From assembly GCA_023231475.1 (NCBI GenBank), contig JALJEE010001544.1, forward strand, positions 1 to 64,000: 64,000 nt of DNA, read 5' to 3'. The DNA is from Seison nebaliae. Taxonomy: Eukaryota. Of the stretch, positions 30,601-36,600 are shown piece by piece. The position numbers and the translations under genes were made by a program. The notes under the pieces were generated by a model. The model was not told the DNA's origin. It did no database searches and saw nothing but the letters and a program-made list of their open reading frames with translations. Numbering within the stretch: position 1 is the first letter of the stretch; every line of letters starts with the position of its first letter.

Positions 30601-33600
30601 ATGTCGTCATCAGTTGGAACATATTCGAATTGGAACGAAACAATTATAACGGTAGGTGACGAGACGCCTGAATATATTGTTGAGCATGAATCAACGAGAG
30701 ATTTAATTCAATTATCCAATTTATCATTCGATAACATTCTTCATGTCCTTCATGAAAGATTTAAAAAGAAATTAAGCTACGTTCTAAATTTTGAATAATT
30801 TTCATTCTAATTCATTCTCTTTCTAGACATGTGCCGGCGATGTGGTTATTGCAATCAATCCATTCACTCAATGGTATTCGTTACCGTTTGATGAAACATT
30901 TTCTGATTTTGAAACGGCACCAGCACATGTTTTTCTCAGTGCGGAAAGAGCATATCGTAGAATTTGTAAGAGCGTTGTTGGAAAGAAACATTTGGCATCG
31001 AAACAATTGATTATTGTCACTGGTGAAAGTGGAAGTGGAAAAACGGAAAATTCCAAATTGATCGTCGAACATCTAATGAGTCGTTGTAGAACTATTCTAC
31101 ATGAAACAACAAAACTACAAAATAAGATCATTGAAGTATTTATTTCATTAATTCTACAATTCATTTCATTTTGTAGATTAATCCGTTATTGGAAGCGTTT
31201 GGAAATGCAAAAACGTCAATAAATAATAATTCGTCAAGATTCGGGAAATATCTCCAATTATTCTTTAACGACGAAGGAACAGTAATCGGCAGTTGAGATT
31301 CTCTTGTAGTTCATAATTCTTCAATTTCTTTCAATGTAGCGAAAATTGAGGAATATCTAATAGAAAAAACTCGAGTAATCACACATGAATCATCGGAGAA
31401 GAATTATCATATTTTCTATCTGATGTTCGCCGGATTATCAGAAGAGGAGCGATTGAATAAATTCTTTTTAACACAACCAGAAAATTACAAGTTAAATTAC
31501 TTAATAAAATAACTGAGAATTTAAAATTTCCAAAGTATATTGAGAAGTAGAACAGAATTAGATGAATCGAATTTGATATTTGATTCTGATATGGAAAGGA
31601 AGAAATGTTTCGCTCTTTTTCATTCCCAATTGAAAATTATGAGTAACGTGGGATTTACTAATGAAGTTTCTGATTTAATTTAATCCGATAATAACATTTT
31701 CTTATAGGAAGTACAAATGGTTCTTTCCATATTATCGGCTATTCTTCATTTGGGTAATATCGAATTCGATACAATATCATCTCCCGCTACTTCACGTTAT
31801 CGTACAATTGACCCGATATCGGATACGGATTCAATTTCCGATTTGAAAAGTATTTCTAAAGTTGATTGGACGATTATTAATGATCGTTTATCGTTACATA
31901 ATGGTTTCGATTTCCATCATCATAATCATCTTCTTCAATTATTTTATAATAGCTTGTGAATTATTAGATATCGATCCTGTCTTGTTAGAGACCGCTTTAA
32001 CTACCATACAAGCATCAACTAAAGGTGAAAATTATAATTTTAATAAAATTTGTTTATGATAATTTTCAGGAGAAATTGTCATTTATCCCAAAAATTTCCA
32101 TCAAGCAAAAGACGGACGGAATGCTTTAGCTAAAGCTTTGTACGCTTTGGTATTCAGTTGGTTGATATGTCGAATAAATGATTTATTGAAAGAGAATTTT
32201 AGTGATAAGTTAATTTTTTTTACTTTCATATTTTAATTTAAATGTCGAATAGTTTCGGTGACGATGTCTCTCAAAATGAGCAACGATCAATTTCAATTTT
32301 GGATTTTTCTGGTTTCGAAAGTTTCACTGTGAATAGTTTGGAGCAGATGTGTATCAATGCAGCGAATGAACATTTACAGAATTATTTGAACGAACACATC
32401 TTCATTTATGTTAATCATTTCAAAAATGGTTTTTATTAAATTTGTTTAGGAGAAGATCGATTATGAGAATGAAGGAATAAAAAATATCATTCCTCAATTT
32501 GAAGCGAATCGTCAATGTATCGATTTATTTATGCATGTTTAATTTTCCTCTTTTCAATTTATAAATTCTTTTTAAGACAATCGGAATCATTTCGTTAACT
32601 GATGAGGAATCGACTTTTCCTGGAGCGACTGATATATCTCTAGTAGATAAATTGCATCAGAATTTATCTTCCCATCCAAATTATTGTCAACCGAGAGCAG
32701 ACGCGATTGCTCATACAGCTTTTGGTGTGGTCCATTATGCGGATATTGTTTGGAATTTTCGTGAAAACATTTTTTTCAATTTACCTTTTTTTTCAGGTCA
32801 CTTATGATGCACGGGGTTTCTTGGAAAAGAATCGAGATACGTTGACAAGTAACCTGATTGAATGTGTGAATAATTCGAAATTGTTAAAACGATTAATCAG
32901 GTTAAATAAATAATTCTTCTCCACCTCTCCTAATATTCAATCTCGTTCGTCAGAGATGTAAATCAACAAAGACGGTTCTTATCATTTTTTCGTTATCGTC
33001 ATTCATTATCTTCATTAAAGATACAATCGAGATTGGCGGAATCAGCAACAACAGACTATCCTTTCACATTTTCGAGTCTCATTAATTATTCATCAACATT
33101 CCAACAATTTCTTACATTTCTTTTTCAGACGTCGTTGACTCAACTACTGTTGAAATTGGATGAATCAGAACCGTTATTCGTTCGGTTAGTAACGTCATGT
33201 TCTAGTTGAGTGGAGGATGAGAGAGACTTCCGTCTCCTATTCTTTTCTATTCGTTTACTTTCCATTCATATGATTACACTTCGTTTCCGTTCTTCTTCTT
33301 CTTTTTCATCTTCTTCTTCTGAAAATCGACGATTAGTAGATTGAGAATTCAATCATTCCATAGAATAACAGTATTAGCATGTGCTCTCATATCATATTTC
33401 TTTATTGAGTTTTTGGAGTAATAAGATTTGGAAATAAACTGAAAAAATTTGGAGGGAGAGAATGAATGAGAAACACAAATATCTTTCTCATACGATTCAT
33501 GCAAGATCAGGTGTAATGATGCGACGAAATATTGCTGATCGACAATGTAATCGTGTAAATGTCACTATGTTCGAAGGAGGTGAGAAGAGATGTCTTTCCG

Positions 33601-36600
33601 ATTCCAACATCCGCACTGACGTTCATTCGTTAATGTCACGATCATCCCATTTATCTTCGTCGATATCGACTAATTCTGATTCATTCCATTTCTCAATGAA
33701 TAAAAATTCTTCTCGTTATTACGCGAGTGACAGTAATCGAACTTTATCGACACTCTCTTACAACACTTTCATATTTGGGCGAGGCCTCGTTCCGTCATCC
33801 GAAGACGACTCCACTCAACATCCATCAATCTCATCATCATTATCACGCAATGGTCGATCATCGAGCGACACGGAAATCTATCAACCAATTACTTGTTCAA
33901 CAATCACTCACGTCACCACATTGCCACCACATCATCGGATCGGTCGATCGGCGTCCGAATTCTCTCTCAGTTCCATAAGATTATCACAAAAGTAAAATTT
34001 CTTCTAAAAAACGACAAACTCTCTTAAAAATACTTTGAAAATTAATTTGAAATTTTAAATTTTTTTTATCAATTTCTAATATATTTCTTTCATTTCAGAT
34101 GTATCAAAGCGAACGAAACAAGAGAACCGGAATTGTTCGATGTTGAAAGTGTGGAACGACAATTGAGATATAATGGAATTTTCGAAATTTCCAAAATACG
34201 ACAAATGGGATGGCCAATACGTTTACAATATTCTGATTATTTAGATAGGTTTAATTCGAATTATTTTATTTTTTTGATTCTCTTCCAATTCGTTAGATAT
34301 AAATATTTATTATTATTATGTCCATCAACTAACCATAATGAATTACCACTAAATACTTGTGAGCTATCCGTACATTGTCCCAAACATTGGTTTCCGGCAG
34401 TTAAACGGATTCAAAATTCGATAAATATAAAGTCGTCAGAATATGCGTTAGGGAAAACGAAAATATTTCTAAAAGAGAAACACATAGAAGAATTGGAAGA
34501 AGTTTTAAGAAAATTAATTAATCAGATCATCACATGTCAATCGATTGTTCGTGGCTATATCTCACGATGTCACGTCAGAATGATGAGAATGGAACGAGAT
34601 CAATTGAATGAAACAATAAAGAATTTTTTGGTGTTTATTAATCAATCGAAATCTCAATACGTTCCATCTCTCTTCCATACAAAAATGATTGTTATCAATC
34701 ATCAGAATGTTAGTCGTCGTTTGTGAAAAGAATTGATTTCATTGGAAATTTAGAAAGAAAAAAGTGAATTGAATGAAGACGGAAATATGGTTTGTCTCTC
34801 CAAAAACGGTTGTGTTGATGATAAGAGAGAACGTCGGAAGGATAAGTTCACAAATGTTCACACATTCCTCCTCTTTTCTAATGTAGACGATTTAGAATAA
34901 AATGAGATTAATCGAACAATATTTTAGTTTCCTATAAAACCTGAAAACATCTCCGAACTACTAACCATATTCTCTTGTTAGTTTATGATAATCTCTCGCT
35001 ACCATAATGGTGCGAGGAAGAAAGGGATTAGAAGAAAATTGGAAGAAAGAAGAAAATTAAATGTTTCTTATTTACTTTCATCTTCTCAATCAATACTGAC
35101 ATGTGTAGACGGTGTGGGATATGTTGTATAGACAATATCTCGAAATATTCGAGATCTCTTTTTTCCATCTTTATTATCGATTCTTATCCACATGTTCCCT
35201 CTATTTTCCTTCTTATTTTCCTCCAACTAGAATGATGTACCGAATGATGGTAATGGAAATGCGAGAGAGGATAGTCATTCTGTTGAAACGTGTACGTCAG
35301 GAACATTGTGTTCGAAGACACTCTCTTCGTCGTCGATAAATCAACAGATAGAATCACAATCGTTATCGTCGAAGAAGAATTTTGATAAAAGTCAAAGTAT
35401 TCTGATTAAAGGTTAACGGAAGAATTCTTTTTCTAACAAACTACATCCAATCTTTCTTCCTCCATCACAAACAGATTGTTCTGTTCAATTAATAAAGAAA
35501 CCATCAAATCATCAACTCTCATCAACGACTACTGAGTTGTCTGTGGTTGACTCATACGAATATCAGAATCTCGTACGAATTCCCTCAGAAGATTATGATT
35601 CGAATGAAAATCGAATTATCGAATTAACTGGAGAGAAGAAGAAGAAATATTGTTTAAATTCTGATGTTTATTTAGGAAACGATAATCTTTCAACAACATA
35701 TTCACACGACAACGAACAATTCAGAAATCAACAATCATCACAATTGTCATTATCTTCCACAATTTATACGAATCATCAGGTTCCATCGTCGAATATTTTA
35801 GATGAATCGTCTTATGGAAAATCAATTACTTTAGAGAAAATTTATTCGAATTTAGTCAACTCTTCCACAATCAATCCATCATCAACCACTCAACAAATTC
35901 TTTCTACATATGACAATAACATTTTATCGTCTGATCAACAATTCACTTCTGGTGATTATTCCAATTTAGTTCAACTCAATACACAATTGACATGTGGATT
36001 TGGTAAGGGACAGAAAGGTAATACCATTTCCAGAAATGATATAACTAATTCTATTGCTAATTCACTTCAATCACTTATCGATCTTTCCACTAAACAACAA
36101 CAATCGAATTCTAAATTCAAATCTTTCCCACCACCCCCTCCACCATTATCTCAATTTTCTAATGATCGTTCGAATGAGAACACATTAAGGTTAACAAATG
36201 AACAATATCAGAAGAATGATAACAATAATAATAATCGTAAACTAAAATCGACAACTAAAAAAAGGGTTGGAGAAAAATCGGAAAAACTACAAAAACAAAA
36301 TTTTGGAAGTGAACAATCTGAAAATCATCTAACTGTTATTGATCGATCTCGGAATCACCAAGGTGGTATAGATCGATCTAAAAACCATCAAACGGTTATT
36401 GAAAAATCTGAAAATCACCAAAAAAATATATATCGATATCAGAATCATCAAACGGGTACTGGAAAATCTGAAAATCACCAAAGAAATATATATCGATATC
36501 AGGATCATCAAACGGTTCCTGAACGGTCGCAGAATCATCAAACGGTTGTTGGTGGAACTGAAAATCACCAAAGGGGTATTGATCAATCTCAGAACCATCA

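Follow-up and report, generated by a model that had tools for sequence, protein, structure and literature searches.

A stretch of 64,000 nucleotides from Seison nebaliae (contig JALJEE010001544.1, positions 1 to 64,000 of the forward strand; hereafter the window) carries on its + strand a gene that fuses a myosin head to a chitin synthase. One intron in the head-coding part of this gene holds a 177-codon open reading frame (ORF), which we argue is probably the first coding exon of a second transcript. In a protein search the host protein matches at 100% the GenBank entry "hypothetical protein SNEBB_003598 [Seison nebaliae]" (KAI3384530.1, 3786 aa, P0002 in our set), and the next relatives are bdelloid rotifer chitin synthases, with 72-74% identity over the catalytic region. 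Pfam searches find Myosin_head and IQ directly after a 914-nt intron and Chitin_synth_2 in a 2538-codon exon (E 2.4e-27), and PF00063 is precomputed for the GenBank protein. As read in that exactly mapped protein, the N-terminal head carries the P-loop GESGSGKT, switch I and switch II LDFSGFE, and the chitin synthase (GT2) domain stands C-terminal in the same reading frame as the head. The gene is of the myosin-linked lophotrochozoan chitin synthase type of Zakrzewski et al. 2014 (PMC3942024, excerpt), and its head is of class-36 type, a class that groups mollusc, rotifer and annelid forms (Kollmar & Muhlhausen 2017, PMC5583752, excerpt). The features that matter here are the following, with a slash marking a splice point.

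30601..43033, + strand: myosin head and chitin synthase gene of class-36 myosin type, beginning with the start codon and ending with the natural stop of the large exon (Pfam, GenBank protein match)
33129..33184, + strand: last head exon before the long intron, ending in ...EPLFV plus CG of the Arg codon
33185..34098, + strand: 914-nt phase-2 intron of the motor-bearing full-length mRNA, splitting FVR/CIK; donor 6.0 bits, acceptor 9.0 bits
33185..33461, + strand: intron segment upstream of the ATG, putative internal promoter and 5' untranslated region (UTR); acceptor-like sites end at 33363 and 33409
33435..33437, + strand: TAA in the ORF frame, which it closes on the 5' side; 8 codons (27 nt) upstream of the ATG
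33462..33991, + strand: nested coding exon, ATG plus 176 codons plus 2 nt of a split Lys codon; Ser-rich, no known family
33506..33991, + strand: ORF segment that the GenBank model includes as an in-frame cassette, 486 nt, 162 codons; acceptor ends at 33505
33992..34098, + strand: 107-nt candidate intron from the nested exon to the shared CIKAN exon, donor AA/GTAAAATT, 3.5 bits
34099..34248, + strand: first shared exon, C-terminal end of the myosin head; Pfam Myosin_head profile 583-679 of 679, aligning from residue 634 of the myosin-X chains 5i0i and 5kg8

An earlier, sequence-only reading of the locus had drawn attention to the phase-2 intron at PLFVR/CIK as far longer than the other introns of the motor domain. 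This is confirmed by mapping the GenBank protein to the window: the 14 introns upstream in the motor domain measure 40-53 nt. The long intron has the donor TCG/GTTAGT at 33184/33185 and the acceptor TTTCAG/A at 34098/34099, and the joined exons read ...EPLFVR-CIKANE. Over the whole gene model (30781-44137), 22 of 26 introns are 40-63 nt long; donors begin with GTT in 21 of the 26 and with GTA in only two, the donor of the nested exon among them.

The ORF within the intron is as that reading had described it: on the same strand, 177 codons long and Ser-rich (39 of 177 residues). Its frame is free of stops from 33438 to 33992, and the ATG at 33462 has an A at -3. The TAA at 33993-33995 overlaps the phase-2 donor AA/GTAAAA, and a splice from 33991 to the acceptor of the 34099 exon keeps the frame, giving ...SQK-CIKAN, again in agreement with the earlier proposal. 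The in-frame stop 27 nt upstream of the ATG is likewise present, but the claim that no pyrimidine-rich acceptor lies there is only partly right. Two acceptor-like sites precede the ATG. The one ending at 33363 scores 7.3 bits and would put a transcript from the FVR exon out of frame; the one ending at 33409 scores 4.0 bits and would lead such a transcript into the TAA at 33435. Downstream of this TAA all in-frame acceptors are weak, although one of them may be used. These scores come from splice-site position weight matrices (PWMs) that were trained on 22 short introns of this gene and discriminate weakly, with 34% of GT sites and 45% of AG sites reaching the scores of the candidates. The nested donor (3.5 bits) falls within the training range (mean 3.9, sd 2.2).

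Measures intrinsic to the ORF point, though less strongly, the same way as the variation described below. A stop-free + strand frame of at least 185 codons arose in only 11 of 5000 dinucleotide-preserving shuffles of the intron, and the codon score is +0.166 bits per codon in the ORF frame, against -0.22 to -0.85 in the five other frames. Database searches place the ORF in no family. We found no homologue among proteins of 97-310 aa, among proteins of 311-2000 aa or among 1.84 billion representatives; Pfam returned no family for the ORF, its best ESM Atlas score was 0.77, which is under the useful range, and Rfam gave 0 matches to the intron. The possibility that the ORF is a transposable-element fragment, which the sequence-only reading had itself raised, finds no backing: the ORF belongs to no Pfam family, has no repeat copies within 14.5 kb around it, and is matched at full length once in whole-genome contig sets, the other matches being chance ones of 22-24 nt.

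The strongest evidence on the Seison side comes from natural variation. S. nebaliae has been reported as two diverged strains (PMC8351084, excerpt). We aligned four public DNA contig sets at 80% likeness over window positions 32500-35000 (2.5 kb), and a second, diverged Seison lineage is seen in the contigs at 3-5x depth (runs X3, X5 and X1). As assembled DNA, the contigs show no joints at the splice sites. This lineage differs by ~9-18% in exons while its introns are unalignable, and it is useful for testing doubtful exons by their pattern of synonymous and non-synonymous change. One of its contigs (X3 record 20) aligns over 33677-33996, with 48 substitutions and three 3-nt insertions, and alignment resumes at 34097-34187; the 100 nt between, 33997-34096, are replaced by 107 unalignable letters. 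A second contig (X5 record 27) shows the same pattern over 33858-33996. The other alignable pieces match exons, for example 32575-32750 against the exon 32577-32747 and 34340-34636 within the exon 34297-34708, and in the second lineage a diverged gap covers the 48-nt intron. Conservation of the ORF between lineages thus stops within five bases of the proposed donor. In this respect the ORF behaves like an exon.

The substitutions themselves tell the same story. For record 20, 9 of the 48 differences were listed, so the selection evidence consists of these nine (33905-33956) and one X1 single-nucleotide polymorphism at 33527. All ten are synonymous in the ORF frame, whereas read in either of the two remaining frames just 1 of the 10 would be synonymous. 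Of all possible changes 25.3% are synonymous, and the chance of nine out of nine is 0.253^9 = 4e-6. In control exons 6 of 6 and 18 of 24 differences are synonymous. The insertions CCC, CAC and CTC in the diverged lineage each come after a complete codon. From this pattern of change we conclude that the 177-codon ORF is a genuine coding exon under purifying selection.

An exon in the corresponding place occurs in bdelloid rotifers. In GenBank chitin synthase models of the bdelloids Rotaria, Adineta and Didymodactylos, FVR does not stand before CIKPN; ~185-320 residues of different sequence take its place. We examined 38 models from nine 90% clusters, of which 33 hold an extra exon. Most of these (28 of 33) begin at the Met of the exon (MSDLNLFSTK...). 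The remaining five have a full head followed by part of the exon in a cassette-like arrangement, with entry points that differ between P0012 and P0013, and one Adineta steineri cluster contains both kinds of model for the same gene. All 33 models join the exon to CIKPN, as predictions only. Pfam returned nothing credible for the bdelloid exon. One Adineta vaga model, P0011, also starts at the nested exon, but behind CIKHN, at residues ~186-210, it has a shortened, divergent stretch (…ANQFEHRIVHEQDWPIRF) and lacks the LRYNGILEISYIRNQG segment that other bdelloid models keep; it may be a paralogue with a decaying motor remnant, or a model error.

Because the GenBank models are predictions, we also took seven bdelloid-like metagenome loci as DNA. 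All seven carry the exon, with an open frame of 168-201 codons, and in 7 of 7 similarity at the protein level sets in with the Met. At the 3' end stands the phase-2 donor AG/GTAGA with an overlapping stop, as in Seison, and the bases after the donor are conserved (GTAGAnAAA). Where the next exon is on the contig, its acceptor reads ATAG/A TGT ATT (CIKPN), and the intervening intron is 110-686 nt, longer than usual. An in-frame stop stands 1-4 codons before the Met in four of the seven loci; the other three stay open for 27-30 codons, but this extension is unconserved. In the locus L002 an ...AEPSFVR exon (...DKMKDAEPSFVR) lies 446 nt upstream of the Met, and the bdelloid exon is therefore nested in the same intron as its Seison counterpart. 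A head exon upstream was not found in the other six loci, within the 107-963 nt of upstream sequence that they offer.

In these loci selection covers the start of the exon, and conservation reaches upstream of it. The dN/dS ratio is 0.24-0.73 for distant bdelloid pairs, and in the trio of close loci L004-L006 it is ~1-1.4. Over the first 45 alignment columns, all of them upstream of the cassette entry points, pN/pS is 0.50, compared with 0.65 in the rest. Among L003, L005 and L007, identity is 86-90% over the 100 nt before the ATG, 79-87% in the exon and 62-66% in the downstream intron, and the blocks TATTGACA and TTCGTTTCTAATTGT upstream of the bdelloid Met are invariant or nearly so. By eye, the ~88 nt before the ATG of L003 contain no AG. 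Given the conserved Met, the upstream stops and the conserved non-coding block upstream, we interpret the bdelloid pattern, as seen in the DNA, as pointing not to an internal exon but to a first coding exon that has a promoter and 5' UTR of its own.

The Seison and bdelloid exons are alike in host gene family, intron, strand, position before the CIKAN or CIKPN exon, phase-2 exit, size, a stop just before the ATG and the lack of a known family. In sequence they show no detectable likeness. The bdelloid exon has two strongly conserved motifs, YCRLDRxGHWLL and FPDSCESLTVS, whereas the Seison ORF has neither. In the conservation check that the sequence-only reading had suggested, the exon is conserved in the diverged Seison lineage and has a bdelloid counterpart at the same position. 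Homology between them rests on position, since no similarity is detectable. In a six-frame comparison of the 995 ORFs of the window with bdelloid exon profiles, the nested ORF was outside the top hits. The missing similarity is plausible for a fast-evolving, low-complexity exon, yet this is no proof of homology.

Upstream of the ATG, three short motifs, CGATTAG, TCAATC and TATTGA, stand in the same order in both groups, at -132, -113 and -59 in Seison (33331-33409) and at -131, -122 and -87 in bdelloids, with CGATTAG at -131 in three loci. We regard these shared motifs as a lead only, because they were picked post hoc and were not recovered by nhmmer. Searched with the bdelloid upstream block against the whole 64 kb, nhmmer found no match upstream of the ATG; its best match (E 0.083, 33723-33755, + strand) is marginal and lies inside the ORF.

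Taking the selection on the Seison ORF together with the Met-initiated bdelloid exon, the best reading is that the ORF at 33462-33991 is likely to open the coding sequence of a second transcript, spliced from 33991 to 34099, that would encode a headless myosin-chitin synthase; we put its probability at about 0.65. Transcription would start within 33185-33461, or a spliced-leader acceptor would lie there. Spliced-leader addition has been reported for other rotifers. Translation would begin at the ATG at 33462, and the donor at 33991 would be used and spliced to 34099. The resulting Ser-rich peptide of 177 residues, probably disordered, would replace motor residues 1-648 and with them the P-loop, switch I, switch II and the actin-binding parts. 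The cut falls within FVRCIKxN, which we take to be strand β3 of the motor's central sheet. The predicted product would keep the last piece of the head from this strand to the converter and everything behind it, namely the IQ region, the long linker and the complete membrane chitin synthase. That the product would lack the P-loop and switches but retain the converter, IQ and downstream domains had been foreseen, and it follows from the exon map: all three nucleotide motifs are encoded upstream of 33184, and the head end, IQ and chitin synthase downstream of 34099. Such a form would make or place chitin without motor activity of its own, and it might compete with the full-length form, as has been proposed for headless Myo10.

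Several observations weigh against this reading. The evidence for selection in Seison stops short of codons 1-15, which lie upstream of the GenBank acceptor. Because these 15 codons are the ones that distinguish a first exon from a cassette exon, purifying selection as seen in the sequence fits both equally well. The codon score of the ORF, although positive, is below all 105 windows of the accepted coding sequence of the gene (minimum 0.186, mean 0.369). The nested donor begins with GTA, whereas 21 of the 26 donors of the gene begin with GTT, and 34% of all + strand GT sites score at least as high in the PWM. Between the Seison ORF and the bdelloid exon we detected no similarity, with -0.3 bits in hmmsearch and, in hhalign, an E of 0.76 over 8 columns (PDSCESLT against PITCSTIT). 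The bdelloid models are predictions, not transcripts. Finally, since only L002 among the seven loci shows an upstream head exon, the other bdelloid copies may be headless paralogues and not two-isoform genes. The first-exon proposal of the sequence-only reading is thus upheld in part. The ORF behaves as a genuine exon, its 3' boundary at the donor is conserved and its bdelloid counterpart is Met-initiated, but the selection evidence would suit the GenBank cassette just as well.

That cassette is the foremost alternative, and we consider it unlikely. In the GenBank model KAI3384530.1, the head exon that ends at 33184 is spliced to 33506, the segment 33506-33991 is included and 33991 is spliced to 34099, so the protein would have a full motor that carries 162 additional Ser-rich residues between FVR and CIK. 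The GenBank protein maps to the window in exactly this way, the length of the segment is a multiple of 3 and the phases match. The differences at 33527 and 33905-33956 fit it equally, and 5 of 33 bdelloid models likewise bridge the head and CIKPN via part of the exon. How the GenBank Seison models were made is not described in the excerpts of PMC8351084 and PMC12690905. The acceptor that the cassette needs, ending at 33505, scores 0.1 bits, a value undercut by only 2 of the 22 training acceptors and reached by 45% of + strand AG sites. Entry into the exon is not at the same point in the two cassette-like bdelloid models, P0012 and P0013, and the part of the bdelloid exon upstream of these points is conserved as coding from the Met (pN/pS 0.50), with stops just upstream. 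A 162-residue insert would, moreover, break a conserved core strand of the motor.

Less probable still is an independent small gene within the intron, in which a 177-residue protein would end at the TAA at 33993 and never be spliced to the chitin synthase exons. The ORF does have an ATG and a stop of its own, selection on its frame suits this reading too, and the limit of conservation at 33996 may reflect a stop codon as readily as a donor. Such a gene would leave unexplained why Seison and 7 of 7 bdelloid loci form this stop from a GT donor in the phase that the next acceptor needs, and why in bdelloids conservation continues past the donor into the intron (GTAGAnAAA); all 33 bdelloid models, predictions though they are, join the exon to CIKPN. 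A non-functional origin, whether by chance, from a decayed piece of a transposon or as an unproductive "poison" exon with a peptide of no consequence, would suit the missing Pfam family, the lack of homologues in three large protein searches and a codon score under every accepted coding window, but we judge it very improbable in view of the 10 of 10 synonymous differences listed and the whole-codon indels, the alignability of the ORF between lineages whose introns are not alignable, the absence of repeat copies in 14.5 kb, of more than 22-24-nt chance matches to other contigs and of any Rfam match, and the mere 11 of 5000 shuffles that reach its length.

The predicted headless chitin synthase has a close parallel in mammals. 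Headless Myo10 arises, as we propose here, from an alternative start in an intron of the motor region, and apart from missing most of the motor the product is identical (PMC5725431, excerpt). Its translation starts at M644, and its promoters lie in the intron directly before (PMC5725431, excerpt). The cut points are close to each other: the Cys of CIKAN aligns with residue 634 of myosin-X (PDB 5i0i, 5kg8). The two systems differ in the content of the isoform-specific exon, which in headless Myo10 is entirely 5' UTR, whereas that of Seison would code for ~177 residues (168-201 in bdelloids). They also differ in the host, a class-36 myosin with a fused chitin synthase as cargo in Seison and a class-10 myosin in Myo10; the Seison headless form is predicted from sequence.

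Chitin synthases with a reduced or missing motor are known in other forms. Fungal class VII chitin synthases have a shortened motor-like domain without ATP-binding motifs and act as the motor-defective partner of a motor-bearing enzyme. The fungal class V/VII enzymes acquired their myosin head by an independent fusion (PMC3942024, excerpt); their origin is separate, and the two forms come from two genes, not from two isoforms. In animals, losses of the motor domain have been described in some chitin synthase paralogues at the level of whole genes (Zakrzewski et al. 2014, PMC3942024, excerpt). These lophotrochozoan losses are gene-level events, whereas here one gene would make both forms. Rotifers have 0 occurrences in the text of that study (PMC3942024). 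In the literature that we searched we found no description of a headless isoform, or of isoform-level motor loss, in an animal chitin synthase.

Myosin-linked chitin synthases are believed to tie the deposition of chitin to the actin cytoskeleton. If our reading is right, the same gene would supply either a motor-driven or a motor-free chitin synthase, and the headless form could act as a competitor of the motor-bearing one. A more far-reaching proposal, which we hold tentatively and at slightly less than even odds, is that the headless isoform of the class-36 myosin-chitin synthase is an ancient rotifer feature. A promoter and a fast-evolving coding first exon would then have been present in the FVR/CIK intron before Seisonidea and Bdelloidea split, with the head cut at nearly the same place as in headless Myo10, and some bdelloid duplicates would possibly be constitutively headless. 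Annotations of the exon are inconsistent: the Seison model has it as a cassette, 28 of 33 bdelloid models make it their N-terminus, and 5 of 33 include part of it as a cassette. Because rotifer annotations treat it in these different ways, some of the motor "losses" reported in lophotrochozoan chitin synthases may be isoforms or split models.

Other parts of the GenBank model call for comment. At its 3' end the model leaves the 2538-codon exon at 42950, 81 nt ahead of the natural stop at 43031-43033, and a 447-nt intron then links it to seven further short exons (43398-44236; window 42951-44236). This extension resembles a neighbouring gene that the model has fused to this one. The neck/linker region contains a second intron of atypical length, 375 nt at 34856-35230, which has + strand open frames of 67 codons (35032-35235) and 76 codons (35109-35339); it may conceal another exon or a mis-modelled stretch. 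Further downstream, in the linker that joins the myosin neck to the chitin synthase, positions 36305-36664 contain tandem 30-nt (10-residue) repeats in at least 8 copies, with units of the form ...SENHQxxIxR...

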